From sequence record SRR31156797_3634: a stretch of 39,335 nucleotides of DNA, one strand, 5' to 3'. Shown piece by piece: positions 7,178 to 35,147 of this stretch. How positions within the stretch are numbered: the stretch's first letter is position 1; each line of letters starts with the position of its first letter. The position numbers and the translations under genes were made by a program. The notes under the pieces were generated by a model. That model saw only the letters and a list, made by a program, of their open reading frames with translations, was not told the DNA's origin and did not search any database.

Positions 7178-7240
7178 CATGCCCACTTTCCGAGGTGATG
7201 GGGGCAGTTACGGAGTGTGAGGCTAGGGGGTGTTTCTATA

Positions 7241-9401: not shown

Positions 9402-9537
9402 AAACACTCCCCTTTCAATTTCGGAATCCTGCCCCGGATTCCGTAAAACTCAACAAATCCTGCCCTCAACACACCTTCCGCCGTGCAGAGCAAGGGGCCA
9501 ACAACGTCAGCCCCTCACCCGCAAACGTATTTTTGAT

Positions 9538-9915: not shown

Positions 9916-9980
9916 GACACTCTCTCCTTGAGGGGGGCGTGTGGCTGCCGTTACGTAAGCAGCCACACACATTGTATATT

Positions 9981-11303: not shown

Positions 11304-11421
11304 AATGATGCTTCCCTTGTTTAAAGTAACGCTGTCAAAAGGCAGCTGACAAAAAACCTGTCAGAATACAACCCGTTTTCGAAGCGTCTCTCCCTTTCCT
11401 CACAGCTCCGATCTGGGCGGC

Positions 11422-11458
11422 GTTGCAGAGGCAAGAGCTGCAGCTCCTGCCTCGCAAC
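11422..11458. other. Long intergenic stem-loop inside the catabolic cluster
   Basis: gttgc-agaggca-agagct / agctc-ctgcctc-gcaac imperfect inverted repeat with no adjacent U-tract. Confidence 0.55.
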
Positions 11459-11511
11459 CAATCGGGAGTCTGGGCTTAAGACTACTAATGCCTTATCGCC
11501 CGTCCCTCCGG

Positions 11512-13665
11512 CTAATCGTTGGGGTGCAACACAATCCGTGCATCCGCTACGGCCAGCCCTTTTTCCCATGCGAACACGGGATTCAGATCAACTTCAGCGA
11601 TCTCTCGCAACTCATTCACCATGTGCGAGATCACACATACAGTTTCCGCCAGGGCCTCTTTGTCGCAAGGTGCAGAGCCTCGGGCTCCTTCCAGCAACTT
11701 GTGACCCTTAATTTCTTCCACCATCTGGCGACATGAAGGCATGTTCACCGGTGCGACGCGGAAAGAGATGTCTTTAAGAATTTCCACGAAGATTCCACCC
11801 AAGCCGAACATTACTGTGGGGCCGAATGTGGTATCGTGGCTGGCGCCGATGATGCATTCCACGCCGCCTGGCAGCATGGGGGTCAGCATCACACCAAAGA
11901 TGTCAGCGTCAGATTTATAGTTCAAACCGTTTGCCACAAGTCGTGCGTAAGCTTCGCGAGCGGCTTGTGCCGAATCGATGCTCAATGCAACGCCTCCGGC
12001 GTCGGTCTTATGCAGGATGTCCGGAGACACGATCTTCATGACGACCTTGCCGCCAAGAGTCTCATATTTCTCAGCCGCTTCATCTTCGCTGCTGGCAAGC
12101 AGGCATTCCGCAAGCGGCAGGCCGTAGGCACTCAGCACTTCGCGGGCCTCGGTCTCCACCAGATTGATGCGACCGCTCTCGCGCACTGCACCAAAAATAG
12201 CGTCAACCTTTTCCTTACGATCAGCAGGCAGAGCTGGAAGTTCGGCTTGAGCCTCTTCCTGCAGGGCATGACGATTCTCGCTATAATCAACCAGTGCACC
12301 CATTGTGCGCATGGCAGCTTTGACAGAATCAAATACCGGCACACCCATATCACTGATGTAGGCGAGGCATTCAGGACGCTGCGGAGCATAGATGGAGTGC
12401 ATGACAACTGGTTTGTCAGAAGACTGCACACGAGTGATCATGCTTTTGGCAACATCCATTTCCAATTCCCTGAACTCTTCGGACAGGTCTGCATATCCGC
12501 CGTACAGTCCGACAATCACAACACCATCGATGTCTGGATCATTCAAAAGTACATCAAGGCAGCGATCAAAGACCCACATGTCAGCTTCGGGCGTACCCGC
12601 AAGGTCGACAGGGTTTTTAATGGGACAATGAGGCATCAGGATCTCAGCCAGCTTTGCCTGTGTGGCCTCCGAAAGAACCGGAGCCTCCAACTTGAAGCTT
12701 TCAGCAGAATCCGTGGCCATAACACCGTGACCGCCACCGTCTGTCAGGATAGCGATACGCTTGCCCTGAGCCGGTTTACACTTGGAAAAGGCCTCGGCAA
12801 CATCCAACAATTCGTTGGGACTGTCTACACGGATAATACCAGCCTGATTCAAGGCTGCATCAAAGATCTTTTCACTACCGGCCAAAGAACCGGTATGCGA
12901 TGCAGCGGCTCGAGCGCCGGCAGCACTGCGACCGATCTTGATCGCGGCGATGGGCTTCTTGGCAGCAACTTTCCGAGCGGCTTCAAGGAATTTGCGGCCA
13001 TCTTCTTCAGATTCGACACGCAGGCCTTCCATATAGAGGAGAATGACTTTGGAGATATCATCTTCTTCAAGATATTCCACAAAATCATGAAACCGCAGGT
13101 CCATCTGGTTGCCAATGGTGGCCCAGCAACTGTAACCGAGGTTACGAGCCTTGGCGTTGAAGTTCAGGTCAATGCCGAAGTTTCCACTTTGCAACACGAG
13201 GCTCATGGGACCAGGGGCGAGATCAATGATACTGGCATTCATGCTCACGGCTGCGCTATAGGTTCCCATGCAGTTGGGACCCTGAATACGCATGCCGCCT
13301 TTGCGGGCGGCCTCAAGCATCTGCCGTTCGATTTCCTTGCCCTCGGCACCGGTTTCACCAAAGCCGGTGGAAACCACGATGGCACTTTTCACTCCCTTTT
13401 CCACACACTGCTCCACAACGGGAACAATATATTTGGGGGCAATAGCGATGATAGCGAGATCGACATCCCCTTCCACAGACATGATATCCGGGTAGGTCGG
13501 GTGACCCAGAATTTCTCCGCCAGAGCGGGAAATCAGGTAAATATCGCCTTCGTATTTATTATCAAACAGGCTTTTTGCCGTCCAATAGCCATACTTTTTC
13601 GTATCGCGCGAAGCACCGATCAATGCCACGCTACGAGGGCGGAACAGAGTCTTCAAATCAGACAT
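11512..13665 (-). CDS. ADP-forming acyl-CoA synthetase (acetate-CoA ligase family, fused alpha-beta)
   Basis: PRSVALIGAS CoA-binding domain, GPNCMG, SHTGSLAG phospho-His, NPVDL and ATP-grasp HKTDAGGV / DLNPV motifs; no GNAT extension. Confidence 0.92.
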   Translation of the reverse strand: MSDLKTLFRPRSVALIGASRDTKKYGYWTAKSLFDNKYEGDIYLISRSGGEILGHPTYPDIMSVEGDVDLAIIAIAPKYIVPVVEQCVEKGVKSAIVVSTGFGETGAEGKEIERQMLEAARKGGMRIQGPNCMGTYSAAVSMNASIIDLAPGPMSLVLQSGNFGIDLNFNAKARNLGYSCWATIGNQMDLRFHDFVEYLEEDDISKVILLYMEGLRVESEEDGRKFLEAARKVAAKKPIAAIKIGRSAAGARAAASHTGSLAGSEKIFDAALNQAGIIRVDSPNELLDVAEAFSKCKPAQGKRIAILTDGGGHGVMATDSAESFKLEAPVLSEATQAKLAEILMPHCPIKNPVDLAGTPEADMWVFDRCLDVLLNDPDIDGVVIVGLYGGYADLSEEFRELEMDVAKSMITRVQSSDKPVVMHSIYAPQRPECLAYISDMGVPVFDSVKAAMRTMGALVDYSENRHALQEEAQAELPALPADRKEKVDAIFGAVRESGRINLVETEAREVLSAYGLPLAECLLASSEDEAAEKYETLGGKVVMKIVSPDILHKTDAGGVALSIDSAQAAREAYARLVANGLNYKSDADIFGVMLTPMLPGGVECIIGASHDTTFGPTVMFGLGGIFVEILKDISFRVAPVNMPSCRQMVEEIKGHKLLEGARGSAPCDKEALAETVCVISHMVNELREIAEVDLNPVFAWEKGLAVADARIVLHPND

Positions 13666-17611: not shown

Positions 17612-18397
17612 CTCTTCTCCATTCATATTTTTATGCCTGCATAATGATTCCAGATTCACTAAAAGTATATTCAGCATGAATCCAACAACTATAACTCATC
17701 ACTTGCAGCAATATCTCAACTCATAATTTCATGAAACAAAACACGATCAGGCAATCATCCAGTGACAAAAATCATTGATATGAAAGCCCAAAAGCCTTGC
17801 CCCTTTCATACCAGCTCAAAATGCTGAAACCGGTATAGTGGTGCGCCCAAATTTCGTGATAAACATTGGCATGAATCCAGTCTTTGAAAAAACACTGGAT
17901 CGCTCTGACGAGGACTGGTGAAAGATCAAACAAAAATCATAAAATCAACAGCCAACCAATAATCTGCCATTCTCAACTCAACTCTGCCTTATTCTCAGAG
18001 GACGCTCGTATGTTTCAACACGCCCACGAATTCAAGCAAGAAGCAGCACTGAAAACCGCTTGCGAATTTTTGTAGCTATGGTATCCGTTTCCATATGTCA
18101 AGATAGCGTAACACTCCTCGGTACAAAAGAAAAGTCTATTTTTACACAATATCAAACAAAGCTTTGTCAATACAACCATGGATCATGCTGTTTTTAAAGA
18201 ACTTGAAAAATATCATTTCCAAACATTTCTTTTATAGAACGGCACACTAAAGCTCCCTTGAAGCAACACAAACAATCATCCACACACTGATTGTTCCGTT
18301 GCACTCCCGAAAATATCCTGTATGCTCAAAGAAAATCGAACTCTTTTCGGTCTTTCTGCCACCCGAAGGACAGGCTTCCGAAGGAGGAGTTGAGGGT

Positions 18398-20110
18398 ATG
18401 AAACGTCTCGCTTTGGTCATAATTTGTCTCATAACAATACTTATCGTCGTTCTGGGCACCTATTTCATATCCATGAACCAGCAGGTCGATACCGCGTGGA
18501 ATAATTCCAAAATACAACTTGAAGCATCGCAAAATCTTTTTCTTGATAAAATCAACAAATATAAGCATTTGCCTTTTACTGTCTCCAAAAACAGAACGAT
18601 TCTGAGACTTTTCGAAAACCGTGCCGACCACATCAAAACAGGGATATTGATCAAGGCCATTCAAGTACGGTCAGGCGCGGCTGTCGTTTACATCATGGAC
18701 AAAGAAGGCAACACGATCGCGTCAAGCAATTATGATGAACCAGACAGTTTCGTTGGCAAGAATTATGGATTTCGACCGTATTTTCAACGAGCCATGGATG
18801 GCCGGGAAGGGTCCATGTACGCCATCGGTGCCACGAGTAGCATTCCCGGTTACTATCTCTCCCACCCCATCACGCTGAACTCTAAAATAGTTGGCGTTGC
18901 AGTGGTTAAATTTGAACTCTCGGAACTTCAAAACGCATGGAAAGCCACGAACAACATTGTCATGGCAAAAGACCCAAACGGCGTCATTGTCCTTTCAAGT
19001 CGGGAAGACTGGATCAACAAGACGCTTGCGCCATTACCGAAAGGACTCCTGAAAGCAGCTCGCAAGGGACGTCTGTATAAGGGGGCTCCCCTTGCCCCAC
19101 TTAATGTTTCCACCGGGACAAGTCTGGGCAATCAATGGATCGAAATCAACCAGACACGATATCTGCTCAATGAACAACGGGTCCTCGGCAAACGATGGGA
19201 ACTCATTGTCCTCGTCCCATGGTCCGACATGGTGGACAACAGTCTGCGAAAAAGCCTCATAGCCTTCCTTGCAAGCCTCGCGGCCGCGGCCGGCATACTC
19301 CTCATTCAGGCACACTTCCTCAAAAAACGCATGGAACGCAGGATCGAAAGGGCCAGACGGACCCGACGAATTGACTCTGAAAGAGAGGAATCACTCAGGC
19401 AACTTGCAGATTCCATAGCCCACCAGATTCGCAACCCGCTCATTGGAATCGGAGGCAATGCCAACCTGCTGAAACGGAAAATTCCAGAAGATCAAAGCAT
19501 GGTTGAACATCTCGGAACAATCATGGACTGTTGCCACGATCTGGAACAACTGGTTGTCTCAGTCAGGGATTACATTGACATTATCCCCACACAAACGACT
19601 CTTTTTGACCTAGAAACACTCATTGAAAAATCCCGTTTGGCAGCCATTGAGAGTGTGAAAACTCCACTCGAATCCGTCAATTGGCGTATCAATATCGCAC
19701 CGGTTTCTCTGCCCATGGACGAAGGCCTCATGGGCAAAGCACTCTATGAAATCCTGACTAATGCATTGGAAGCAAGAGACTCCGACACCATTTCCATCGA
19801 AATTATCGGTGAATGGAAGACAACAAAAGAATGCGCCAACAAATTCGAACTCCCCAGCGAGAAATGTTATGTGCTCACAATCTACGACTCAGGCAGTGGT
19901 ATTGACCCAGAAATTTTCAATCATGTCATGGAACCTTTCTTCTCGACCAAACCGCACGGTTCCGGTCTCGGCCTCGCCAAAGCAAAACGCGTCGTACAGA
20001 TATTCAACGGCGAGTTCACAATTGCTTCGCCTGTCCCAGAGCACACGGAATGGAGCACCATGGTACAGTTGACCATGCCATTTTTGGTCGATCTCAAAAT
20101 CGAGCAATGA
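18398..20110 (+). CDS. Membrane sensor histidine kinase with DctB-like Cache periplasmic domain
   Basis: TM, YIMDKEGNTIASSN...SFVGKNYGFRPYF Cache motif, second TM, H-box IAHQIRNPL, and N/G1/F/G2 boxes (NALEA, DSGSGI, FFSTK, GSGLGL); start at ATG 18398. Confidence 0.9.
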   Translation: MKRLALVIICLITILIVVLGTYFISMNQQVDTAWNNSKIQLEASQNLFLDKINKYKHLPFTVSKNRTILRLFENRADHIKTGILIKAIQVRSGAAVVYIMDKEGNTIASSNYDEPDSFVGKNYGFRPYFQRAMDGREGSMYAIGATSSIPGYYLSHPITLNSKIVGVAVVKFELSELQNAWKATNNIVMAKDPNGVIVLSSREDWINKTLAPLPKGLLKAARKGRLYKGAPLAPLNVSTGTSLGNQWIEINQTRYLLNEQRVLGKRWELIVLVPWSDMVDNSLRKSLIAFLASLAAAAGILLIQAHFLKKRMERRIERARRTRRIDSEREESLRQLADSIAHQIRNPLIGIGGNANLLKRKIPEDQSMVEHLGTIMDCCHDLEQLVVSVRDYIDIIPTQTTLFDLETLIEKSRLAAIESVKTPLESVNWRINIAPVSLPMDEGLMGKALYEILTNALEARDSDTISIEIIGEWKTTKECANKFELPSEKCYVLTIYDSGSGIDPEIFNHVMEPFFSTKPHGSGLGLAKAKRVVQIFNGEFTIASPVPEHTEWSTMVQLTMPFLVDLKIEQ

Positions 20111-20858: not shown

Positions 20859-21962
20859 ATGTCTCATTCACGTTTCAAGGGTACCCTGCTCCTGTTCGTA
20901 GCCTTATTGCTCGCATACCCGCACGCATCACAGGCCTGCACTGGAATGCGCGTTATCGCCAAGGACGGTTCTGTTGCTTTTGGCCGTTCGCTTGAATTCG
21001 GTTTTCCTTCAAAATCCGACATCATGGTTGTCCCGCGCGGCATGACATGGACCGCCTCTGCTCCTGAGGGCAAAGATGGCCTGCAATGGACCAACAAATA
21101 CGCCTTTGTCGGCCCCAATGCTTTTGGGTTAAATCGCCCCCTTGAAGGCATGAACGAAAAAAGCCTGTATGTCGCCGGGTTTTGGATGACAACCGGAGAA
21201 ACCGATTTCCCCAAGGTCAAGCCAACTGATTACCCTAAAGCGATTTCCCAATTAGATATGTGCGCATGGGTTCTCAGCAATTTCGCGACAGTGGCAGAGG
21301 TAAAAAAAGGTCTTTCCAAACAAAAACTGACCGGCGTGGCTCTTGAAGCCATGCACACCACCCCCCTTGCCCATTGGTATGTAATGGACAAGACCGGCAA
21401 GGCAATCGTCATCGAATCCATAGACGGTAAAATTCAATTCTCTGACAATCCTGTAGGCGTTGTCACCAATGCTCCATATTTTGGTTGGCATCTCGACAAC
21501 TTGCGCAACTACATCAACCTACACCCCGCAAATGTTGAGCAATTCAAACTCGGAGAGTATACCGTGCGCCCCTTGGGTGAAGGAACCGGCCTTCTCGGCT
21601 TGCCGGGAGACATGACTCCTCCCTCACGCTTCGTCAGAGCAGCCTTTTTTGCAAACACCGCTATTCAGCCTGCTGACGCGGACGGCGCTGTCACCTTGGG
21701 CATGAACCTGATCGCGAACTTCTCCATTCCCAGAGGGATCACATCATCCGTTGATTCAGAAGGGAAACGCGGCTACGACTATACGCAATGGACAACCGTT
21801 TATGACCTGAGCAGAAAGGCATTGTACTACCGGACCTACATCAACCAAGACTATAAGGTCATATACTTTGACAAACTCCCGCTGGATGGGAAAAAGCAAC
21901 ACATTATCCCCTTGTGGGGCGTCAAGCCTGCTTACGAAGACGTCAGCAAAAATAGTAAATAA
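20859..21962 (+). CDS. Second exported linear amide C-N hydrolase (choloylglycine hydrolase / PVA family)
   Basis: Signal peptide ending SQA, N-terminal CTG, GRSLEF, EGMNEK, TNAP and GLPGD.TPPSRFVRA motifs. Confidence 0.92.
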   Translation: MSHSRFKGTLLLFVALLLAYPHASQACTGMRVIAKDGSVAFGRSLEFGFPSKSDIMVVPRGMTWTASAPEGKDGLQWTNKYAFVGPNAFGLNRPLEGMNEKSLYVAGFWMTTGETDFPKVKPTDYPKAISQLDMCAWVLSNFATVAEVKKGLSKQKLTGVALEAMHTTPLAHWYVMDKTGKAIVIESIDGKIQFSDNPVGVVTNAPYFGWHLDNLRNYINLHPANVEQFKLGEYTVRPLGEGTGLLGLPGDMTPPSRFVRAAFFANTAIQPADADGAVTLGMNLIANFSIPRGITSSVDSEGKRGYDYTQWTTVYDLSRKALYYRTYINQDYKVIYFDKLPLDGKKQHIIPLWGVKPAYEDVSKNSK

Positions 21963-23498: not shown

Positions 23499-23538
23499 AA
23501 AAAAGGCTGAGAAGATTTACCTTCTCAGCCTTATTATT
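23499..23538. terminator. Probable bidirectional terminator
   Basis: aaggctgagaag / cttctcagcctt stem with A/T-rich flanks between convergent genes. Confidence 0.8.
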
Positions 23539-23582: not shown

Positions 23583-26500
23583 TCATCCTTTAAACAGATC
23601 CACAGCCCCCTTCAATTTCTGACGAAGCAACGAATCATCGAAACAATTGGCGAGAACAAACTCGGCTGTTAGAAGGACCTTTTTCCAACGAGGTCTCTTA
23701 GGTAGGGTTGTTTCATCAAGATATTTATCCAAAGTCTGCGTTCTAAAATATCCGTCTCTCTCCATATAAACATTCCACAAGCCAGATTGTTCGGCCATGT
23801 CGGCCTTGGTGGTGCCAGTTGACTCGATCCAACAGTCAATAGCCAACCTCATAATTGTGACGGCCAGAGAACGCTTGTTGTCAACCGTATCAAACGATAC
23901 TCGCGAACTCATTCCTTCAAGCAACTGGTCCAAAGATTTCAAATCATCCAAAACCGCCTGCTGATTTTTCACATCACCCGATTCAAGAGAAAGGATGACA
24001 TCCTCCAAATTCACAAATCGTTGCCGGTTTAAATTCAACGCACTATGCAACTGTGTAGAAATAGATGAAGCATGATCCATATTCATGGAACCAGCCGGTC
24101 GAACAATCATCAAACGCAGCGATTCTTCCTCAACTTCTAACCCTGTCACCCAAAAGGAAACCTTAAGTTCACGGCCTTTGCTAACGGATAACAGGACATC
24201 GTCGAACAAATCCGGCATGTCCGACGAAACCGATTCAAAATGCGCAGAATCAAGCAAGGCCACACTCTGTTGCGCCTTGTCATTAACCAGCAATGAAGCA
24301 AGAGGTTGACCGAGCAAGGTGTCGGCAACATTCCCGGTAAGCTCTTCAAAGGGGTGATTACAAAAAGTTATCTCGTTACTTAAATTCACACCGACAATGG
24401 CATCCTCCAAAGAATCCAAAATCTTAGCCAACCTCGCTTGCACAACCCGAAGCCTACTTTCCGTTTTTCGTCGAAGTTCAACTTCACGCTTCAATTTCGC
24501 ATTCTCTTCCAATGCGACATAGGCTTTTTTCAACTTGAGTTGCGTGGCAACACGCGCTCCCAACTCTTCTCGAGAAAACGGTTTCGTAAGATAGTCATTC
24601 GCACCGGCTGCAAAGCCTTTGACGACATCTTCAATCCGATTTTTCACAGTCAGCAAAACTATAGGTAAAATAGAAGCCGGATATTTCTTTCGCAATTCCC
24701 GGCATACCGCATACCCGTCCATAATCGGCATCATAACATCCAGCAGCACCACATCCGGCACGTTACCGTCTTCAATCATCTTTAACGCAATGGGACCGCT
24801 TTCGGCCGTGCGAAAAGATATCTCGGCAAGATTTAAAATGGATGCGACAACCTGCAAATTGACCGGCTCATCATCCACCACCAAAACTTTATAAGCTCCG
24901 TCTGAAGACGTTGTATGACTCTGTAAAGATTCTTCCGTCACAGGAACAGGCAAACTCATTCCTTCCATGAAAGATTCATCAGAATGAAAGGGCTTCGGCA
25001 CGAGAGGCACCGAACCGGGCGGCATGCTCAATAAAAAGGTATCTGCCAAAGGCAGGGAGAAACGAAAGGAGCTTCCCACCCCCTCTTCAGAGACAACTGT
25101 AAGAGCCCCTCCATGCAGTTCCACGAGATGCCCGGCAATTGAAAGTCCAAGCCCTGCCCCCCCGGAACGAGATTCACTTCCTTGGGCATATGCATCGAAT
25201 ATCCATTTCTGATCCTCGGTAGAGATACCCACACCGGTATCAGTGACGACGATTTCCGCAAAACCCTCATGCTGCTCCGCTGAAACAATTATATGACCAG
25301 CTTCGGTAAATTTAAGACTATTTCCAACCAAGTTAAACAAAATTTGTTCAAAACGATCAGGATCTGCTTTTACTGCGGGGAAATCCATCGGGATGCAATT
25401 GATCAATAACATGTCATCATTACGTTTCAAAGCTTCACTCAATGCAAGTACTCGTCGAGCAACCACATACGGCTGGACAGATTCGACCCGCAAAACTACA
25501 TCACGATGCTTCAACCGAGAAAGATCAAGTACATCATTAATAAGCTTTGATAGCCGTTTACCGCTATGAACAATAACCTTCAAATCTCTGGTTGCCGCAT
25601 CGGACAATTCCCTACCACCTCCGGCAAGGAGGGAGTCGGCTATACCGACCATCCCAGCCAATGGCGTTTTCAATTCATGCGTAGTGTTAGCAAGAAATTC
25701 ATCCTTTAATCGGTCCAATTGCACCAGACGAACGTTGGTCGCTTCCAATTCTTCGGAAAGTGCCTCCGTTCGGGCAAACGCATTGGAAAAACGAAAGGCC
25801 AGATAAAAGGCATAAGAAAAGATAAAAACAAAAACCCCAAGAGGACGGAGTAAGGCTGAATTAATAATGTGCAAATCAAAAAGCAGATCAACCAATTCCG
25901 CAAACGCTAGGGCGATATAGCCGACAACAAGTATTCCGATTCCCTTTTCACCACGAAAAAGATCTACAGCGAAACAGCAAAACATATAAACCAATACAAA
26001 ACTACTGATCAAAAAACATGAAAACAAAACGACATCATACGCATTGGGAGGCGTCATGAGAATATAAACAACATAGAGCAGGCCTATGGTCCAATATACA
26101 CGCTCCATGATCCAGCCATATTTCTTGGGGAATAGTCGATGATAAAACATCAACATCAATGGGGCGATCACCCCGTACGGCAACACTGAACAATTGATAT
26201 ACCACTCCCATGAAAGAGACGGAATCAGTATGGTCGCCAAGAACCCGGATGAAGGGCTAAAAATGATCGCAACGCACCAGAATAAACAAAACAATCCAAA
26301 ATAAAGATACTCTCTGCCAGACCGACGCATATAAAAAAGGGCAATATACAAAACACTCAGACAACAAACTGCGCTTGCCATGCATGCACCGAGAAGTCTT
26401 GGCAAAGTATAAAAATCAAGAATTTGGTGAGAAGTGCCGAGAAGTATATCGTTATTCAGACCGCCCTGCACATTATGATAATTGGAAACGCGAAGTTCGA

Positions 26501-27032
26501 TCTCCATGACTCGCCCCGATGCTGGGCATTCTGCAATCACATAATGTCGCATGGGGATTTCGGACTTGAGACTCTTTCCGACGGTGCCGCTCGCTGCGAC
26601 CTTTGTCCCGTTAATCCAGACCTCACAAACCGACATGGCTCCAGCAACCAGAACAGCCATCTGCTCCGGGTGATCGTTGGGCATATTAATACGAAGACGA
26701 TAAATCCCGTTACCCTTCGGGCTCAATACGCGCCCTTGGAAAGTTTCGCCCTCCCACAGGCCAGGTACATGAAAACGATCACTTTTCTCAAAGCCATTCG
26801 TTCGTGTCGAACAAAGGTCTCCGTTCTGCCCACACCACAAAAACTTCCACTCCCCAAAAAGACGCACAGGACCATTGCTGTCAAAATCCCATGAAGAAAG
26901 ATCGATGGCACCACCGAAAGCCCGCGGAGCCGACTCTTGCGGAGTGCACCCCAAAAGAATGAACAACACAGCTGCAGTCAAAAGAATAAAACGAACCGAA
27001 GCCAGATGTGTTCCATTTCTACGCAGCGTCAT
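23583..27032 (-). CDS. Hybrid sensor kinase: 7TM-DISM-type sensor, HisKA, HATPase, REC, PAS and a ChiS-like C-terminal DNA-binding domain
   Basis: Possible lipobox LLGC; extracellular DLSSWDF...GEWKF beta-sandwich; about 7 TM segments; THELKTPL; DTGVGI / GAGLGL; VDDEPVN / LLDVMMP / DYLTKPF; PAS (EDAIVGVN..ITFCN); C-terminal W...SGLWNVY...RTQTLDKYL...PKRPRW. Confidence 0.88.
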   Translation of the reverse strand: MTLRRNGTHLASVRFILLTAAVLFILLGCTPQESAPRAFGGAIDLSSWDFDSNGPVRLFGEWKFLWCGQNGDLCSTRTNGFEKSDRFHVPGLWEGETFQGRVLSPKGNGIYRLRINMPNDHPEQMAVLVAGAMSVCEVWINGTKVAASGTVGKSLKSEIPMRHYVIAECPASGRVMEIELRVSNYHNVQGGLNNDILLGTSHQILDFYTLPRLLGACMASAVCCLSVLYIALFYMRRSGREYLYFGLFCLFWCVAIIFSPSSGFLATILIPSLSWEWYINCSVLPYGVIAPLMLMFYHRLFPKKYGWIMERVYWTIGLLYVVYILMTPPNAYDVVLFSCFLISSFVLVYMFCCFAVDLFRGEKGIGILVVGYIALAFAELVDLLFDLHIINSALLRPLGVFVFIFSYAFYLAFRFSNAFARTEALSEELEATNVRLVQLDRLKDEFLANTTHELKTPLAGMVGIADSLLAGGGRELSDAATRDLKVIVHSGKRLSKLINDVLDLSRLKHRDVVLRVESVQPYVVARRVLALSEALKRNDDMLLINCIPMDFPAVKADPDRFEQILFNLVGNSLKFTEAGHIIVSAEQHEGFAEIVVTDTGVGISTEDQKWIFDAYAQGSESRSGGAGLGLSIAGHLVELHGGALTVVSEEGVGSSFRFSLPLADTFLLSMPPGSVPLVPKPFHSDESFMEGMSLPVPVTEESLQSHTTSSDGAYKVLVVDDEPVNLQVVASILNLAEISFRTAESGPIALKMIEDGNVPDVVLLDVMMPIMDGYAVCRELRKKYPASILPIVLLTVKNRIEDVVKGFAAGANDYLTKPFSREELGARVATQLKLKKAYVALEENAKLKREVELRRKTESRLRVVQARLAKILDSLEDAIVGVNLSNEITFCNHPFEELTGNVADTLLGQPLASLLVNDKAQQSVALLDSAHFESVSSDMPDLFDDVLLSVSKGRELKVSFWVTGLEVEEESLRLMIVRPAGSMNMDHASSISTQLHSALNLNRQRFVNLEDVILSLESGDVKNQQAVLDDLKSLDQLLEGMSSRVSFDTVDNKRSLAVTIMRLAIDCWIESTGTTKADMAEQSGLWNVYMERDGYFRTQTLDKYLDETTLPKRPRWKKVLLTAEFVLANCFDDSLLRQKLKGAVDLFKG

Positions 27033-27241
27033 GTGGAGTTCCCGAAAGCAGTATGTTCAATGCTATATGAATAAATATGATGTGACCCGCCACCTTCAAG
27101 ATGTCTAGTCTTTTCAAACAAAAAGATTCAACAAATCAGCAAACAATATTCGATGTTTCAAAAAAACTTTCCTTTTTCACTCGTATTTACACAATTTAAC
27201 CTTGACGATACTCATACTCAATATGATTTCCCATATAAGTC

Positions 27242-27278
27242 AAAAAAAGAAGGAAAGCCCAAACAGACCTTCCTTCTT
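27242..27278 (-). terminator. Possible terminator after the GT-C-like gene
   Basis: A7 tract plus gaaggaa / ttccttc stem with a long loop. Confidence 0.35.
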
Positions 27279-27377
27279 CATGTGAAAACCACAAGTTCTT
27301 ATCAACCGACTAATGGCAACTATCTAAAATGTCGACACGGCCATACGCCCAATCACGACGATGTTCTCAAAATTCTA

Positions 27378-28823
27378 TTACTCGACTCGAGTTAAGGTTG
27401 GTTGAAACGCCGAATAATCAGATGTGAGGAAATACCACCAATACCAGAAACGGCCTTCCTGATGGAAATCAGTCAACTTAAATTCATACCTCGTATAATT
27501 ATCGCCTGTAGCGTCCTTGGCAAACAACATTTTGCGCTCTTTTTTGTCCACATTGTACAAGTCTTCAAGAGTACCCTTATCCAATTTCATTTTACGGCGC
27601 CAAAAGCCATTCGCCATCCATTCAAGCTTCCCGTATGCCTTATAAAGGCACATGTTTATTGCATAATTATGGACATGACGAGGCCCTTCATACCCAACAG
27701 CTTTAACTGCAACATAACCTGAAGAAGGGGCTTCAACTTGCGAAAATGACTCTGTAAGTGCCTCTTTGAAAACCACGGCAGCGACCTTATGACTATGCCC
27801 TTGATGCTGTAGAACAAGAAAGGCAGCAATAAGCACCCCAGCCACAATAACTCGCGTTTTTTCGGGCCAACGCGATGAAAAATATTGCCCGATGATGACT
27901 AAGCCAAGGGCGCAAGGAATACTCGTCAAATAGGTAAATCGAGAAGTGAAGCTACCGAAAGCGAAAAATCGTAGAGGGCGTCCGACAGCCCAATAAGCAA
28001 GTCCAGAAAAGAAAGCCAAGACGAGGAAGGCCAGCACACATCGTGTAAAATGTTCTTTCTTGTCTTCGCCTGGAAGGAACTTCCTCCCCACAAACATCAT
28101 CCCTAATAGAACAACGGCAAACAGGCCAAAACCTAAGAAATCAGTCAACCTTTCAACGTTAAACGTGTTGTAGTTGCCGCCTTGATGAATGTTGCCAAAC
28201 ATATAAATTGGGATAAAGACACACACAAGAAAGAGACAAAAAGATGCTGTCTTCAACAGCTTCCGCCAAACATTTTCTTTATTCACAGTCATCATGAACT
28301 CTGCACCGGCAAAGCCGACAGCAAAAGCGAATATTGAAAAAAATTGCAGAGAAATAGCAAAAAAGACAAACGCAAGGAGCGGTTTATCCCGCCACAAATT
28401 GACGGCAATCATAAAAAACCAAACACAAAGAATTGATAAGAAAGTGATCCCAGCAGCTAGTGAATGCCAAACAGGAAAAGCAAGAATTATCCAAGCTCCA
28501 AAATATGCATAAGATTCATCGAATCCGAAACGTTTTCTTAAAAGCTTGAACGTTTCTAAAGCTATCCCGCATACAGAGACAACCGTAATCAGATTGACAA
28601 AAACTTTGGGATTCACACCCGTGAAAAGAGAAATTTCATTAAGAGCAAATGAGAGGTAATATTTTACAAATTGAGTCCCTAAATATGGTTTTATGTAAAA
28701 TGGATCTTGTAAATAAAACGCCATTTCCCCCCAAAGCCCGTCCCACATAAAAGTTGTATTAATCAAGAGTGGAGTCAAAGACACGATCCCGACAACAAGA
28801 CTAATCCACTTATATTTATTCAT
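27378..28823 (-). CDS. Polytopic membrane protein, probable GT-C-fold (GtrII/ArnT-like) lipid-linked sugar transferase
   Basis: About 10 hydrophobic segments, WD in the first loop after TM1, soluble C-terminal domain; divergent from the GT2/flippase operon; function inferred from topology and context. Confidence 0.55.
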   Translation of the reverse strand: MNKYKWISLVVGIVSLTPLLINTTFMWDGLWGEMAFYLQDPFYIKPYLGTQFVKYYLSFALNEISLFTGVNPKVFVNLITVVSVCGIALETFKLLRKRFGFDESYAYFGAWIILAFPVWHSLAAGITFLSILCVWFFMIAVNLWRDKPLLAFVFFAISLQFFSIFAFAVGFAGAEFMMTVNKENVWRKLLKTASFCLFLVCVFIPIYMFGNIHQGGNYNTFNVERLTDFLGFGLFAVVLLGMMFVGRKFLPGEDKKEHFTRCVLAFLVLAFFSGLAYWAVGRPLRFFAFGSFTSRFTYLTSIPCALGLVIIGQYFSSRWPEKTRVIVAGVLIAAFLVLQHQGHSHKVAAVVFKEALTESFSQVEAPSSGYVAVKAVGYEGPRHVHNYAINMCLYKAYGKLEWMANGFWRRKMKLDKGTLEDLYNVDKKERKMLFAKDATGDNYTRYEFKLTDFHQEGRFWYWWYFLTSDYSAFQPTLTRVE

Positions 28824-29326
28824 AATTTCCTTTTATTCAAAAAAAAGAACACTTTCAGATAACAAGAAAAGTGCATTAAAATTTAAACGACCAAAAAGTA
28901 TCTATATAATTTCGCAAAACGTCAACGCCTCACGTTCCTGCTGAAAAAGGCAAACATTATTAATGACGCTCAATTCATTATTATCCTTAAAAAAGAAGAT
29001 AGACTAACAAAAAAAGGACTTCCGCCTCCCCTAGGTCTTCAAGGGGTACGCACATTTCATTTGTGCGTACCAATATCTCGACAAGACAGTTGAACATTGA
29101 CTTGCCTGCAAAGTTGCCACACAATTACCAAGGCCGTTCAAGCAAATGGGGCATAACTGCTCAAATCATCAGGTCGCTTCTCAAACGTTTTATTAGGCTA
29201 CAGAAACACAAACAAACATATTGAGAAAAGTGATATCATACGGCATAACGGCACAAAAAAAATCCCAGTACTTTCAATATGAAGCATATAAACGACTTAT
29301 AAAATGTATGCCCACACATAATTGAC

Positions 29327-30259
29327 ATGAAAAACAAAAAATTCAGTGTAGTTATTCCTGTATACAACAGTGCCAAGGTCGTTTCTCTCACGGTAGAACG
29401 AGTTCGTGCCTTTTTTTTAAAACACGATTTTTCATTCGAAATAATTCTCGTGAATGACGGAAGCCCCGATAGCAGTTGGGATGTTATTTCCGAGCTGGCA
29501 CAAAAACATGAAGAAGTCATCGCGATTAATCTGTTGAAGAACTATGGGCAGCACAATGCCAACCTGTGCGGTTTTCGTGCCTCATGCGGGGACTACCTCA
29601 TTACTATGGATGACGATCTGCAAAATCCCCCTGAAGAAATCATCAAACTGATCGAGACCATCGAACAGGGATATGATTTGGTTATCGGCAAATTTGAGAA
29701 AAAAGAGCACTCCTTGTTCCGTTCTCTGGGCAGCAAAACCATAGGGCACATTATTCGTAAAGTCTTTCGTGTCAAAGACAATCTCATCCTTAGCAATTTC
29801 AGAATAATTCGACGAGATGTTGTTGACCGTGTGTGTGAAGATACATCTGTCACCCCATACATTCCAGGGCTTGTCCTTTTATATTCCGTCAATAGATGCA
29901 ATGTCCTTGTCAAGCACAATGCCCGTGAATATGGAACCAGCAATTACAACCTCGTTAAGTTGGCAAGACTGGTAATGACCATACTCTTTAGTCATTCCAC
30001 AATCCCGTTACGCTACGCAGCAGGATTCGGTTTCATAGCATCCATCATAATCTTCTGTCTGGGCCTTTTCTACTTAATTAATGCCATCTCCAGCGGTTCT
30101 GGTGTGCCGGGCTGGCCAACGTTAATAGTTCTCCTATCCTTTTTTAGCACCATTACCATCACATTACTTAGCATCATAGGTGAGTACATCATTCGACTAC
30201 TTCGCGAGACTCACTCTTCCCAAAGTTATATCATCACCAAGATTGTAGGCAAAAAATGA
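29327..30259 (+). CDS. GT2 polyprenol-phosphate glycosyltransferase (ArnC/GtrB-like)
   Basis: SVVIPVYN, VNDGSPD, NYGQHNA and MDDDLQNPP motifs with two C-terminal TM helices. Confidence 0.92.
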   Translation: MKNKKFSVVIPVYNSAKVVSLTVERVRAFFLKHDFSFEIILVNDGSPDSSWDVISELAQKHEEVIAINLLKNYGQHNANLCGFRASCGDYLITMDDDLQNPPEEIIKLIETIEQGYDLVIGKFEKKEHSLFRSLGSKTIGHIIRKVFRVKDNLILSNFRIIRRDVVDRVCEDTSVTPYIPGLVLLYSVNRCNVLVKHNAREYGTSNYNLVKLARLVMTILFSHSTIPLRYAAGFGFIASIIIFCLGLFYLINAISSGSGVPGWPTLIVLLSFFSTITITLLSIIGEYIIRLLRETHSSQSYIITKIVGKK

Positions 30260-31020
30260 ATCAACTGTTCATAGTTGGCGCCCAGCGCTCCGGATCAACC
30301 TATTTATACAAGCTCTTTGACAATCATCACCAAATCTACATGGCTAAACCTATCCGGCCTGAACCCAAATTTTATCTCGACACAAAAAGAATAGAAAAAG
30401 GCAAGATTGCATACGAAAAACAGTACTTCTCCGATGTCCCATCCCAAACCTTATATTGCGGAGAAAAGAGTTCTTCATACTTGGAATCAGCAACCACCGC
30501 CCAAAAGATTTACTCTTTTTATCCAAAAGCGAAAATTCTGGTTATCATTCGGAACCCTATACTAAGAGCGTGGTCCAACTACAAATTTAGCACCCAAAAT
30601 GGGTTAGAAACATTGACCTTTGAAGAAGCTCTTGACCTTGAACCGACTCGTCTGAAGGACGCCAAGTACACCACGTCCGTCAACCCTTTTGCTTATCGGA
30701 CAAGAGGGGAATATATGGATTATATTTCACCGTATGTAGACATCTTCGGTAAAAAGAATGTTAATGTGACGATCTTGGAGGAATTAACGGGAAATATTCA
30801 TAAAATCCAAGATCTTTATTTATGGTTGGGTGTGGACTCAACTGTAAAACCAGCGACATCAAATGATATAATAAATTCATCTGACAACACAAATAAGTGC
30901 TTACCAGATAAGGCAACAATGCAGAACCTCGCAGCAGGCTTCAAAGACTCCCTGTCTCGATTGGAAGCATTTTTAGACCGTCCCATAACATGTTGGCGGG
31001 AACATTGGAGCTCTTTTTGA
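30256..31020 (+). CDS. PAPS-dependent sulfotransferase
   Basis: 5'-PSB GAQRSGST, EPKFY, GEKSSSY and 3'-PB RNPILRAWSNY; ATGA overlap with the GT2 gene. Confidence 0.88.
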   Translation: MNQLFIVGAQRSGSTYLYKLFDNHHQIYMAKPIRPEPKFYLDTKRIEKGKIAYEKQYFSDVPSQTLYCGEKSSSYLESATTAQKIYSFYPKAKILVIIRNPILRAWSNYKFSTQNGLETLTFEEALDLEPTRLKDAKYTTSVNPFAYRTRGEYMDYISPYVDIFGKKNVNVTILEELTGNIHKIQDLYLWLGVDSTVKPATSNDIINSSDNTNKCLPDKATMQNLAAGFKDSLSRLEAFLDRPITCWREHWSSF

Positions 31021-31370
31021 ATCTTCTACCAATACTCTTGGTTTTCATAGCCACCATGTTTGGTATTCTGAGCGCAATCCTGCTCAAATTCACCTCAACC
31101 CTTACCACTGAGTCGCTGTTGCTCATCGGCTTTTTATTTTGTCTAGTTCTTCTTTGTAACTTTGGGAGAATGATCGTCTGGGGATGTATTTATAAACGTT
31201 ACAGCATAAGTTACGCATACCCATTGAGTAGTATTTTCTTCCCCCTCATTTTGGCCGTCAGTTACTTCTTTTATGGAGAAGAAATAACTCTTTTTAAAAT
31301 CGCCGGTGTCACGCTTATTGTGGCAGGAATTATCGTGATAACGAGGGCCGAAGGATCTCCTAATGAATAA
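31017..31370 (+). CDS. Small 4-TM EamA/SMR protein, ArnE/ArnF-like flippase subunit
   Basis: ISYAYPL and GEEIT..KIAGV.LIVAGI motifs; probable TTG start overlapping the upstream TGA after GGAG (alternative ATG 30990). Confidence 0.75.
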
Positions 31371-31920
31371 AATTAATCAGCGACTCTACAAAGACCACTT
31401 TTTAAAAAGCATTGCCAATTCATTATATGTGTATCTCGCATTCCTCTTCCATACTGTCGTCAACTTCCTACCTGGCATACTCAGAGTCTTATGCTTCAGG
31501 CCCTTATTAAAAAAGTGTGGCAAACATGTTTTTTTCGATCACAATATTTACATTAAATATCCATGGCTTGTAACAATGGGAGACTCCGTCGTACTAAACC
31601 GCGGAGTCGAAATATATAATGACTACTTCAGCAAATCAAAAGTTCTCATAGGTTCAAAAGTTCGGTTGGCACCTCATGTCAAAATTCACGGTTCAGGCCA
31701 TGAACTTGAATCCGGAAACATGCACCATGCAGGAGGCGACATCGTTATCAAAGATAATGTATGGATCGGTGCAAACGCAATTGTGTTGGCCGGAGTCACG
31801 ATCGGCGAAGGAAGTGTTATCGCAGCAGGAAGTGTTGTAACAAAAGACATTCCTTCTCACGTCATCGCGGCAGGTATCCCCGCTGTAATCAAACGTAAAT
31901 TATCAGACACGGGTAAATAA
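31363..31920 (+). CDS. Hexapeptide-repeat (left-handed beta-helix) sugar acyltransferase
   Basis: [32 protein letters not shown]...GIPA. Confidence 0.88.
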
Positions 31921-32225
31921 TGGCTCCCATTTATCTATTATGTGCCATCGTCGCCACGGCTTTTGCACAGATCATCTTTAAATATGCCATAACCAAACGT
32001 CACAAAATTTGGCTCGCTACAGCCTTGCTACTCTTTTGTATCGCTCCGCTCATGAGCTGTCTTGCCTTGAAGACTTTGTCTCTTAGTACCGTGTACATGG
32101 CTACCGGATTGACATATGTTCTCGTCATACTGATGGCAAAATGTTTTCTGAAAGAACAGATGACTAAACAAAAAATCTCCGCCATGCTTTTGATCGTGGC
32201 GGGAGTCATCGTTTTCAATATTTAA
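31920..32225 (+). CDS. Small 4-TM EamA/SMR protein, second ArnE/ArnF-like subunit
   Basis: AQIIFK, LSLSTVY and FLKEQM...LIVAGV motifs; TAATG coupling to the upstream gene. Confidence 0.75.
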   Translation: MAPIYLLCAIVATAFAQIIFKYAITKRHKIWLATALLLFCIAPLMSCLALKTLSLSTVYMATGLTYVLVILMAKCFLKEQMTKQKISAMLLIVAGVIVFNI

Positions 32226-32242
32226 TTTCAAACAGGTAACCT

Positions 32243-33391
32243 ATGGGTATTCGATTCAATTTCCCCCATCAAATCGGTAGTGAACTGGATTACATAAAAG
32301 ACTCGCTGACAAACGGAAAACTTGCCGGTGATGGACCTTATACACACAAATGCTCTCAAATCCTTGAGCAATATCTTGGCTCACCAAAAGTTCTGTTGAC
32401 ACATTCTTGTACAGCGGCCTTGGAAATGGCTGCCATCCTTGCCGATGTTCAGCCAGGTGATGAAGTCATAATGCCTTCATATACTTTTGTTTCCACGGCC
32501 AACGCATTTGTACTGCGAGGTGCTGTACCTGTTTTTATCGACATACGACCTGACACGTTGAACATTGACGAATCCCTTATCGAAGCTGCGATCACCCCTA
32601 AAACAAAAGCTATTGTTCCCGTGCATTATGCTGGCGTAGCATGCGAAATGGACACCATTCTCGACATCGCCGCCAAACACGATCTTCTTGTTATTGAAGA
32701 CGCTGCACAAGGATTGGGAAGTTCATATAAAGGACGCAAACTAGGCACATTAGGAGATTTGGCCGCCATCAGTTTCCACGAAACGAAAAACATCGTTTCA
32801 GGGGAAGGCGGAGCCCTTGCGATAAACAACCCAGCTTTCCATGAGCGTGCTGAAATTATCCGCGAAAAAGGAACAAACCGTTCAAAATTTTTCCGTGGAG
32901 AAATAGATAAATATACATGGGTCGACCTTGGTTCTTCATATCTACCAAGCGAATTGGTCGCTGCGTTTCTTTATGGTCAACTCGAAAAGATCGACGAAAT
33001 AAACAGCAAACGTATAGAGATATGGAACCACTATGACAAAGTTATACGCCCTCTGGAAAAACAGGGACTCGTTTCGTTAACTCGGCATCCTGAAGGCTGC
33101 CTGCATAATGCGCATATGTATTACATACTCACGCGTACCCCTCAAATCCAACAAGCTATGCTCAAGGCTCTGAAGAACGCAGGTATTAATGCAGTATTTC
33201 ATTATATTCCATTACACGCCACAGAAGCAGGCATAAAATTCGGGCAAACCGGATCTGCAATGGATGTTACCGATGACGCTCCATGGCGATTAATCAGATT
33301 ACCTATTTATCCAGACTTGGAACGCAAGGAACTCCAATTTATTTGTGAGACTGTGCGTAAAGAAATAAAAAGACTCACTAATCAGAATTAG
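32243..33391 (+). CDS. wecE: dTDP-4-amino-4,6-dideoxygalactose transaminase (DegT family)
   Basis: GDGPYT, THSCTAALEM, EDAAQ, SFHETKN (PLP Lys), REKGTNRS, DKYTW and HYIPLH motifs typical of RffA/WecE. Confidence 0.92.
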   Translation: MGIRFNFPHQIGSELDYIKDSLTNGKLAGDGPYTHKCSQILEQYLGSPKVLLTHSCTAALEMAAILADVQPGDEVIMPSYTFVSTANAFVLRGAVPVFIDIRPDTLNIDESLIEAAITPKTKAIVPVHYAGVACEMDTILDIAAKHDLLVIEDAAQGLGSSYKGRKLGTLGDLAAISFHETKNIVSGEGGALAINNPAFHERAEIIREKGTNRSKFFRGEIDKYTWVDLGSSYLPSELVAAFLYGQLEKIDEINSKRIEIWNHYDKVIRPLEKQGLVSLTRHPEGCLHNAHMYYILTRTPQIQQAMLKALKNAGINAVFHYIPLHATEAGIKFGQTGSAMDVTDDAPWRLIRLPIYPDLERKELQFICETVRKEIKRLTNQN

Positions 33392-33474: not shown

Positions 33475-33900
33475 TCAGGCTACGAAGCTAATCTCGCCAG
33501 CAGTGCTGTTGACCGTGGCCTCTTTCGCTTGACTAAGCATCTCCATCCCCGTCTCATCAATGCAGACTACGGGCATTTCCTTTTTATAAAACTCTCGCAT
33601 AACCAACGGCCCTGTTAAAAGAACCGTATTGGTACGAAGATTCACCAAAGCCTTTGGAGCCTTGCCCACCCGAGCCAGTTCGAGCAATACCAATCCTGCC
33701 CCACTGGAGCCTTTTCCAAAAGGGAATACAAGGATTTTTTCAGCCATGGACTGCCCATATTGATCACTCAGTGGATCCTGTATAATCCCGGTTTCAGGAT
33801 CAACGCCACCTATAAAACTCAATGCCTTGCGAGAAAACAAAACTTCACCAGCGACTTTCCCTTTGACAATACCTTTGCACTCAATTGTGGTTAATGCCAT
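33475..33900 (-). CDS. Aconitase X small (swiveling) subunit, DUF126
   Basis: LSFIGGVDPETG and ILVFPFGKGSS motifs; overlaps the large-subunit stop. Confidence 0.9.
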   Translation of the reverse strand: MALTTIECKGIVKGKVAGEVLFSRKALSFIGGVDPETGIIQDPLSDQYGQSMAEKILVFPFGKGSSGAGLVLLELARVGKAPKALVNLRTNTVLLTGPLVMREFYKKEMPVVCIDETGMEMLSQAKEATVNSTAGEISFVA

Positions 33901-35147
33901 GACTTCACGCTCCTCTTCATTGTGCCAGCAACGGCCGTTTCAACACAATCCTCAAGGCTTCCGTACACAGGTTTTATTCCACTATACGAAAAACAGTACG
34001 TGCTGAATTTACCGGAATTACTCATAATCCCTTTAAAATTCCATTGATCAAACGGCGAAGACATAGGACAGCCGTCGGTGTAAACTTTCACACCACAACG
34101 TCGCAACGCTTCGTACATTCCATTCTTTTCCATATGCTGTTTATTACAACGATTGGTAAATGCCCAAAACTCCATTGATGAATGAACCTTTCGTCCAGCG
34201 AACGTCTTTAATAAACTTTCACACTCGGCATGCGAAAGATGAGGGCAACCAACAGTAACCATATTGATTTCATCAGGTGAGGCATTACTCATACGCTCTT
34301 CTGATTGACGAAGACGCTCAGGAGTAACAATTACGACATCCCCGGGCTTTTCACCATGAAAAGCCATTTCAAGAGTCTGTGCCTCCGGCGTCAAACCAAG
34401 AAGATGAAACAAACCGACACCGCCAGATGAAGCCGAAGTCGCTGAAAAACGCTTTAAACCATCAATCTTACTATGCAGCGGCAACCCTTCCATTGCTCCA
34501 ATTCGATCACCAACGATTTCGCCATGCACATAGCCAAGCATGTCATAAATAGCGTCATCGAGAAAATCGTCTTCTTTGAATCCCTCAAGTTTTATAAGAA
34601 CTTCTGCTTTTCGATTTTCAGGACAATGCAAACCTTGATATGGGACTCGCCCAGTCAAACCAGCACAAAGGTCAAGCAATCCGGCATACCGTTCTGTACG
34701 AGCCCCGATGATGGAATTCACATAATTCGTCGCATTTGATTCTGCCCAAGCAACCTGTTCGCCAAAACGAGGGACAAAACCCGCAAAATAGGGAGCACAG
34801 GTCCAGGATGCAGAAGCACCAAGAGTGGTATGCGCTTTTTCAATACGTTTATGAATCGCATACAACTCGGGATCAAACCTTTGCTCTTGCCACTTTTCCA
34901 AATCCATCAAGCACGAATTCAATGAGGTCGGTACGCAAAACTTCCCACCCAGTTCGACAAGATGCTCAGCGAACTCCAAAGCGGCAAGTCCGCTATACCA
35001 AGCATTGTCATCATGAACCATGGAGATGGAAATCATTTTTTCCGCTCCCATGGTTTCACCAAGATCGGAAAGGATACTCATCCCAATCCGTGCGGCCTCT
35101 CCGCTATCTCCATTCAATAAAGACTTGTCATAATCATTCAAATACAT
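33891..35147 (-). CDS. Aconitase X catalytic subunit, DUF521
   Basis: TCAPY, WAESNA, NSIIGART, FHLLGLTPEA, GCPH, DGC and NSGK motifs. Confidence 0.92.
   Translation of the reverse strand: MYLNDYDKSLLNGDSGEAARIGMSILSDLGETMGAEKMISISMVHDDNAWYSGLAALEFAEHLVELGGKFCVPTSLNSCLMDLEKWQEQRFDPELYAIHKRIEKAHTTLGASASWTCAPYFAGFVPRFGEQVAWAESNATNYVNSIIGARTERYAGLLDLCAGLTGRVPYQGLHCPENRKAEVLIKLEGFKEDDFLDDAIYDMLGYVHGEIVGDRIGAMEGLPLHSKIDGLKRFSATSASSGGVGLFHLLGLTPEAQTLEMAFHGEKPGDVVIVTPERLRQSEERMSNASPDEINMVTVGCPHLSHAECESLLKTFAGRKVHSSMEFWAFTNRCNKQHMEKNGMYEALRRCGVKVYTDGCPMSSPFDQWNFKGIMSNSGKFSTYCFSYSGIKPVYGSLEDCVETAVAGTMKRSVKSWH

Follow-up and report, generated by a model that had tools for sequence, protein, structure and literature searches.

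A gene on the minus strand of a 39,335-nucleotide stretch of DNA from sequence record SRR31156797_3634 (the window, by which we mean that whole stretch) encodes a hybrid sensor kinase of 1149 amino acids, P0001, whose C-terminal tail is, by sequence and by predicted fold, a DNA-binding domain of the ChiS family. Vibrio cholerae ChiS is a hybrid sensor kinase that directly activates the chb operon, and by analogy we consider it probable that the product of the gene described here is a transmembrane, one-component regulator of transcription from the ChiS family, in which homology places a jelly-roll ectodomain and a 7TMR-DISM bundle where ChiS has its periplasmic and HAMP sensor. The protein belongs to a published architectural class, to which it adds a member and not a principle. 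Its closest database relative, labelled uncultured Pseudodesulfovibrio sp., is 99% identical over the full length, and the other full-length relatives, mostly from Desulfovibrionales, are 31–69% identical. Conservation is given throughout from an alignment of 43 sequences (A1), comprising P0001 and 42 relatives chosen from 120 listed homologues so as to be full-length and to cover a range of identities.

The assignment of the tail rests on two comparisons. An initial annotation, made from the sequence alone, had pointed to a resemblance between the C-terminal ~100 residues and the ChiS domain and had proposed a profile or structure comparison of the two; the suggestion was right, and the similarity is significant by both routes. 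When the last 180 residues were searched with phmmer against all PDB chains, the sole match at E<=10 was 7kpo_A (E 4e-17; 66 bits over 83 residues, at positions 82–164 of the 180 searched), and the data statement of Klancher et al. 2021 together with the PDB title identify 7KPO as the ChiS DNA-binding domain (ChiS 1024–1129). No Pfam or NCBIfam model matches the same 180 residues, even at E<=10. A structure for residues 1045–1149 (105 aa) was predicted with AlphaFold2 (AF2) from an alignment of nine tails, namely that of P0001, seven sub-stretches of homologues, and that of a Marinobacteraceae locus, L014. The model has a predicted local distance difference test (pLDDT) score of 91.5 and places a beta-hairpin (strands 45–46 and 52–53) between the second and third helices (32–39 and 55–59), as predicted for the helix-sheet-helix fold of ChiS, a trihelical bundle whose turn is replaced by a hairpin. 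In a Foldseek search of the PDB it matches 7kpo with E 1.5e-8, template-modelling (TM) scores of 0.86/0.85, and a root-mean-square deviation of 1.5 Å over 98 columns at 39% identity; 7kpo is the only fold match with E<=0.001, the second-ranked match having E 0.51. The tail segment quoted in the initial annotation is real, and lies at about the position listed in Table 1.

Five basic residues of ChiS are needed for DNA binding, R1068, R1074, K1078, R1090 and R1092, with K1078 and R1090 described as very well conserved (Klancher et al. 2021). Reading the phmmer alignment by hand, with a chain-to-ChiS offset of 1021, we map these in order to R1092 (R or K in 38/43 sequences), Q1099 (Q in 39/43), K1103 (K or R in 43/43), R1115 (R in 39/43) and K1117 (R or K in 27/43), such that three are identical (R1092, K1103 and R1115), one is conservatively replaced (K1117), and one is changed (Q1099). 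A clade-specific arginine, R1097, which is R or K in 42/43 sequences, sits two residues upstream of Q1099. The replacement of ChiS R1074 by glutamine could be taken as a sign that the tail does not now bind DNA and serves some other role, such as dimerisation or protein contact. We judge this very improbable, given that the equivalents of K1078 and R1090 are kept, that the high-confidence helix-sheet-helix model superposes closely on 7KPO, and that the tail is strongly conserved across the 924 cluster representatives found at E<=1e-10 in the census described below.

The tail is attached to a core that is itself built like ChiS. The open reading frame (ORF) list has a single 1149-aa frame with an ATG start, in which the HisKA-HATPase-REC-PAS series and following C-terminal domain reported by the initial annotation are present; from the N- to the C-terminus, the modules are a lipobox-type signal, a GH2-N-like beta-sandwich, 7TMR-DISM_7TM, HisKA, HATPase, REC, PAS, a linker, and the C-terminal domain (Table 1). 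The Pfam matches are to 7TMR-DISM_7TM at residues 222–412 (47.7 bits against a cutoff of 29), HisKA at 443–509, HATPase_c at 557–663, Response_reg at 716–828 (97.6 bits) and PAS at 867–926 (31.8 bits), with a sub-threshold match to Glyco_hydro_2_N at 58–166 (19.5 bits against a cutoff of 28); NCBIfam gave generic hybrid-kinase matches only, every one of them far under cutoff. The hybrid histidine kinase signature is complete, with its Pfam scores above cutoff, including the H-box histidine, the N and G boxes, the receiver aspartate, the acidic pocket, and the threonine and lysine. Residues H452, T456, N567, D598, G600, G602, G625, G627 and G629 are invariant in all 43 sequences, as are the receiver residues D720, D721, D765, T795 and K817. 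T456 lies at H+4, the position of ChiS T473, which is required for phosphatase activity according to the ChiS preprint. By BLASTP, residues 429–1145 are collinear with the ChiS-type ORF of a Vibrio locus, L004 (244/735 identical, 33%; E 6e-114), and residues 1–428 do not align with it. Because the match is a single collinear block, the kinase, receiver, PAS domain, linker and DNA-binding domain can be regarded as a single unit of ChiS type, the sensor alone being different, as the initial annotation had supposed; the L004 homologue has a HAMP domain and no seven-helix module.

Table 1. Features of the kinase gene and its flanks in the 39,335-nucleotide window
Feature	Coordinates	Strand	Basis or remark
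Whole gene, 1149-aa hybrid sensor kinase with ChiS-family tail (P0001)	23583..27032	-	ORF list and translation
Signal sequence ending in lipobox-like L-L-G-C, residues 1-29	26946..27032	-	hydropathy and conservation
Extracytoplasmic beta-sandwich (GH2-N-like jelly-roll), residues 30-212	26397..26945	-	AF2 and Foldseek
Seven-helix membrane module 7TMR-DISM_7TM, residues 213-415	25788..26396	-	Pfam PF07695
Histidine kinase core (HisKA with His452 and Thr456; HATPase_c), residues 443-663	25044..25706	-	Pfam
Receiver with Asp765, residues 716-828	24549..24887	-	Pfam, 97.6 bits
PAS domain, residues 867-970	24123..24434	-	Pfam PAS 867-926 plus weak Diguanyl_cycl_sensor match reaching 970
Linker, PAS to DNA-binding domain, residues 971-1050	23883..24122	-	no family match; gapped alignment to Vibrio ChiS homologue
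ChiS-family DNA-binding domain (helix-sheet-helix), residues 1051-1149	23586..23882	-	7kpo_A by phmmer, AF2 and Foldseek
Presumed own promoter region, AT-rich	27033..27245	-	between upstream hairpin and ATG; intergenic GC 0.36
Terminator-like hairpin, upstream membrane-protein gene versus kinase gene	27246..27279	-	15-pair stem, then T-run
Bidirectional terminator-like hairpin, kinase gene versus convergent rsgA	23503..23532	both	12-13 pair stem; inverted repeat 23500-23535
Polytopic membrane protein, 481 aa (P0122)	27378-28823	-	soluble C-terminal part; upstream of kinase gene, same strand
Arn/Gtr-style cassette	29327-33391	+	divergent from P0122 gene

The distribution of the tail was examined with a profile built from the nine tail sequences. 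Among 1.84 billion cluster representatives it finds 989 carriers at E<=0.001, of which 924 remain when the threshold is tightened to E<=1e-10 and 123 when it is tightened to E<=1e-30. We classified 150 sequences, comprising 149 of the 150 best census matches (one match of 91 aa was dropped) and P0001. The tail ends no more than 10 residues from the C-terminus in 146 of these, 11–40 residues from it in four, and more than 40 in none, in agreement with the published rule of an exclusively C-terminal position; Klancher et al. 2021 counted 3,829 proteins with a ChiS domain, 587 of them with an architecture unlike that of ChiS, with the domain always C-terminal. Architectures were called with profiles cut from A1, which recognise only modules resembling those of P0001. 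Preceding the tail are ecto-7TM-HK-REC-PAS in 37 of the 150 (P0001 included), ecto-7TM-HK-REC in three, 7TM-HK-REC-PAS in two, ecto-7TM-PAS in 14, ecto-7TM in five, 7TM-PAS in six, HK-REC-PAS in 11, REC-PAS in 11, PAS only in 12, and other combinations in seven; no module was recognised in 42, which have a median length of 175 aa and are possibly fragments.

The shorter relatives that join the sensor to the tail with no kinase or receiver number 19 of the 150, examples being P0124–P0126 and P0131 (ecto-7TM-PAS-tail) and P0127, P0132, P0147 and P0153 (ecto-7TM-tail), and they amount to a natural 'deletion series' bearing on what the phospho-module contributes. Among the 120 whole-protein homologues listed, 75 have the tail, the bulk of them from Desulfovibrionales, with relatives from Maridesulfovibrio and Solidesulfovibrio also represented, and 45 do not; many of the latter have SpoIIE, GGDEF, LytTR, cyclase or His_kinase outputs by Pfam. 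We note that the tail is not detectable in two close relatives, P0004 (941 aa, 82% identical, from P. nedwellii) and P0051 (1187 aa, 44% identical), of which P0004 may be a truncated or frameshifted copy. A tblastn search of the tail against annotated plasmids found five records, from Aeromonas, Rhizobium and Pararhizobium, none of them obviously of the seven-transmembrane (7TM) class.

By analogy with V. cholerae ChiS, we propose that P0001 would remain in the inner membrane and bind specific promoter DNA through its C-terminal helix-sheet-helix domain. In this scheme the ectodomain and the seven-helix module would read an external cue and thereby shift the balance of kinase and phosphatase activities at His452 and Thr456, this balance would set the phosphorylation state of Asp765 in the protein's own receiver, and the affinity for DNA would change with it; no separate response regulator would be needed. 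The ChiS preprint reports that ChiS is membrane-embedded and binds Pchb directly, and that it activates the promoter in Escherichia coli without a partner. Its kinase activity exists and is dispensable for activation; phosphorylation lowers DNA binding, and in an allele defective for the phosphatase, as in the D772E phosphomimic, both activity and occupancy of DNA are lost. The preprint also reports that ChiS needs two 13-bp sites, and proposes a contact with the alpha subunit of RNA polymerase.

Several points weigh against the proposal of a one-component regulator. One is the glutamine, Q1099, that occupies the position of a ChiS DNA contact here and in most of the aligned sequences. A second is that the isolated ChiS tail, according to a legend in the preprint, binds DNA without activating transcription, and activation therefore requires more than the tail. 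The sign of the phospho-control and the retention in the membrane are, moreover, carried over from Vibrio, and a conserved kinase and receiver would be equally expected of a conventional phosphorelay to a Hpt protein or response regulator not linked to the 39 kb inspected. In favour of the proposal, the 19 sensor-tail relatives suggest a path from sensor to DNA that is independent of phosphorylation, and phosphorylation itself is suggested to be a modulator of this output path.

The conventional alternative has Asp765 passing its phosphoryl group to a Hpt protein and a response regulator encoded elsewhere, with the tail in an accessory role such as autoregulation or localisation. The invariance of the kinase, phosphatase and receiver residues is what such a protein would show; the ecto-7TM-HK-REC chassis occurs with other outputs among the 45 tail-less homologues; and the inspected portion of the genome is 39 kb. 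Within the window, however, Pfam searches of 34 ORF translations (33 of at least 100 aa) found, apart from the kinase gene itself, no REC, Hpt or chitin-related family, which agrees with the earlier statements that no response regulator is adjacent and that chitin genes are lacking. ChiS, with the same conserved sites, works in E. coli with no partner as described in the preprint; the tail equals the catalytic core in conservation, 12 of its columns being invariant in 43 sequences; and the kinase-less relatives retain sensor and tail where HK-REC is gone. We therefore regard a conventional hybrid kinase as unlikely and favour the one-component regulator.

The sensor half of P0001 begins with a hydrophobic peak at residues 10–28 followed by L-L-G-C29, with the cysteine kept in 34/43 sequences and Gly28 in 37/43; the possible lipoprotein signal noted initially reads as described, as a matter of pattern. 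The beta-sandwich noted in the same place is borne out by an AF2 model of residues 30–212, made from an alignment of eight ectodomains, which is a beta-sandwich with a pLDDT of 83.5. Foldseek found 287 PDB matches to this model with E<=0.001 (best E 1.1e-6), and all of the fold neighbours among the matches listed are GH2-type glycosidases, through their N-terminal sugar-binding domains (TMq 0.47–0.60). Glyco_hydro_2_N is matched under its cutoff in four of the eight ectodomains, the only other such match being a weak one to BetaGal_gal-bd. The 7TMR-DISMED2 family (PF07696) has no match in the full protein at E<=1 or in any of the eight ectodomains at E<=0.1, and a true 7TMR-DISMED2 domain finds no support at the sequence level. 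DISMED2 falls in the same structural superfamily as the GH2-N-like jelly-roll. Of the carbohydrate-type sensor that had been suggested, the part that stands is a sugar-binding type of jelly-roll fold, as modelled; this is a statement about the fold and does not extend to a glycan ligand. Precedents given in a review are diverse, with the 7TMR-DISMED2 sensor of LadS binding calcium and the carbohydrate-binding module of RetS responding to mucin glycans. Following the ectodomain, the match to PF07695 spans profile positions 11–203 of 205, and seven hydrophobic helices can be traced by eye across residues 213–415, of which a strict hydropathy scan resolved only part; these agree with the count of about seven membrane spans made at the outset. 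An exported N-terminus followed by seven helices would place the kinase in the cytoplasm.

The likeness to V. cholerae ChiS thus extends over the order HisKA-HATPase-REC-PAS-linker-DNA-binding domain, the fold of the tail, the phospho-sites, and the threonine at H+4. ChiS-type proteins have two transmembrane helices, a periplasmic domain and HAMP (the last found in the ORFs of L004 and of a Pelagibacterium locus, L013), whereas P0001 has a possible lipobox signal, a jelly-roll ectodomain, seven transmembrane helices and, by Pfam, no HAMP. Unlike the ChiS locus, the 34 scanned translations include no partner gene for a solute-binding protein and no chitin or chitobiose genes, and by the hand mapping the R1074 position holds Gln. 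P0001 does not fit an orthologue of ChiS acting as a chitin sensor under the control of a chitin-binding solute-binding protein, given the lack of HAMP, the 428 unaligned N-terminal residues, and the absence of linked chitin genes among those translations. Regulators of the ToxR, TfoS and CadC type use winged-helix or AraC-type domains, and are not known to have a kinase-receiver pair. P0001 would resemble them in having a DNA-binding domain tethered to the inner membrane and a sensor facing outward (PMC11856585). Pseudomonas aeruginosa RetS and LadS share with P0001 an extracytoplasmic beta-sandwich that leads through a bundle of seven helices into a kinase bearing one or more receivers, and their sensors are described in the review as of the carbohydrate-binding-module type. 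Unlike P0001, they act on the GacS network and, according to the review, have no DNA-binding domain; the P0001 ectodomain differs in turn in its lack of a 7TMR-DISMED2 match, and RetS is not among the ectodomain fold matches listed from the PDB.

The novelty of architecture implied by the initial annotation was not borne out. The legend to Fig. 5A of Klancher et al. 2021 (mBio 12:e03287-20) lists 7TMR-DISM among the architectures with a ChiS-family domain, and Data Set S1 of that paper contains a named group of 39 accessions with the same domain order, from Oleiphilus, Marinobacter, Spiribacter, Guyparkeria, Halothiobacillus, Thioalkalivibrio, Desulfuromonas and Geobacter. All five modules of that group are present in P0001 in the same order. 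The 'unassigned hits' sheet of the dataset includes Pseudodesulfovibrio sp. S3, P. aespoeensis and Desulfovibrionaceae bacterium CG1_02_65_16, and one of our homologues, P0042, carries the same organism name as the last of these. The published group is a bioinformatic list, in which the Desulfovibrionales clade is unassigned. A search of the literature outside subscription journals, by titles and abstracts, turned up no functional work on members of the 7TM class, and those of the listed papers that concern ChiS itself were, by the same measure, work on Vibrio or passing mentions of the term.

The kinase gene appears, from the sequence of its flanks, to be transcribed on its own, since terminator-like hairpins lie on both sides of it. 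An operon with the upstream gene is rejected on account of a 345-bp gap and the intervening hairpin. A promoter scan placed no consensus promoter within 27033..27245, the region presumed to hold the promoter. Downstream, the convergent gene is rsgA, with a choloylglycine-hydrolase-family gene, a YbaK-like gene, a dCache histidine kinase with no receiver, and an IclR regulator farther to the left. We note that this second sensor kinase (dCache_1-HisKA-HATPase; 18299-20110, plus strand) also has no response regulator in the window. Besides the sulfotransferase cassette described below, the window contains two choloylglycine-hydrolase-family (CBAH) paralogues, at 152-1195 (+) and 20859-21962 (+), and a sulfatase, at 1282-2931 (-).

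On its other side, the kinase gene is preceded by the gene for P0122, which has no Pfam or NCBIfam match and whose Atlas look-alikes are clusters of hypothetical proteins; Glucos_trans_II occurs in 14% of the members of one such cluster, which we take as a lead only. The position of P0122 beside a cassette for an undecaprenyl-phosphate (Und-P) sugar suggests an unannotated periplasmic glycosyltransferase of a GtrC- or ArnT-like type. The GT2 protein of the cassette is nearest to the undecaprenyl-phosphate aminoarabinose transferase model (ArnC-like), at 190 bits and below the cutoff of 529 bits, and a WecE-type dTDP-4-amino-4,6-dideoxyhexose transaminase scores 587 bits against a cutoff of 375; a sulfotransferase, two small ArnE/F-like membrane proteins and a WcaF-like acetyltransferase are also encoded. 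The presence of a sulfotransferase in a cassette of Arn/Gtr style is unusual. An aconitase-X large-subunit and swivel-domain pair, at 33475-35147 (-), lies beside the cassette and seems to have no bearing on the kinase gene. The GC content is 0.41–0.44 in the cassette genes, 0.46 in the kinase gene, and 0.48–0.51 in the genes beyond it. The divergent intergenic region, 28824-29326, is 503 bp long. A repeat search of three intergenic regions gave short two-copy repeats and a single perfect palindrome; the latter lies in this region, has arms of 10 bp and a 7-nt spacer (29045-29071), and is joined there by a direct repeat of 16 nt whose copies, 88% identical, are 92 bp apart (29150-29165 and 29242-29257). 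These are short two-copy matches in AT-rich DNA, which we do not count as binding sites; they may be operators or RNA elements.

The adjoining surface-glycan genes, namely the P0122 gene and the cassette, could be controlled directly by the regulator from this intergenic region, as the initial annotation had proposed in naming the cassette a candidate target. There is a precedent for adjacency in L013, where a ChiS-type gene is divergent to an SBP_bac_5/ABC-transporter operon; the palindrome and the direct repeat lie within that region; and a glycan-type sensor fold beside glycan-modifying genes makes a coherent pairing. A strong terminator-like hairpin, however, sets the kinase gene apart, the repeats are of the short kind just described, and the low GC content of the cassette is one often seen in variable surface-polysaccharide islands. 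A search for related loci returned at least 76, and among those listed four reach the tail (L004, L012, L013 and L014), none of them from Desulfovibrionales; the 7TM class is confirmed for L014 only, and L012 was left out of the comparison. At L014, the single orthologous locus of this class that was obtained (30% identity), the neighbours are a TRAP-transporter binding protein and permease, TetR, a GDSL lipase, an amidase and a subtilase, and the 10 kb to each side of the gene contain no glycosylation genes. As a single distant locus, it carries little weight in either direction. The proposal of the cassette as target went unsupported beyond adjacency, and we consider it unlikely.

We note that the L014 gene itself (6621-13039), with its 7TM-DISM sensor and ChiS tail, lies 99 bp downstream, on the same strand, of genes for an AdeT-like TRAP solute-binding protein and a DctM permease, an arrangement that recalls the control of ChiS by the binding protein of a transporter.

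A still more speculative proposal, to which we give a slightly smaller chance than to control of the cassette as such, is that the Desulfovibrionales clade represents a self-contained circuit for sensing and remodelling the cell surface, in which a lipid-anchored, glycan-reading ectodomain would drive the tethered ChiS-type domain onto the divergent promoter, switching on the Und-P aminosugar and sulfation cassette together with the unannotated periplasmic transferase. If true, this would be the first case outside Vibrio in which a regulon and a signal are known for a ChiS-family regulator.

The lesson of ChiS is that a hybrid kinase can act as the transcription factor in its own right, and the literature searched yielded no test of this principle in the hundreds of tail-bearing proteins from outside Vibrio. 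P0001 offers a clean and complete example from a sulfate-reducer lineage, whose phospho-sites are intact, whose sensor is of another kind, and which has no partner regulator close by. Since the tail has no Pfam or NCBIfam model, annotation pipelines give proteins of this kind no label beyond 'response regulator' or 'ATP-binding protein' and overlook their output; modelling the tail as a family would correct roughly a thousand cluster-level annotations.

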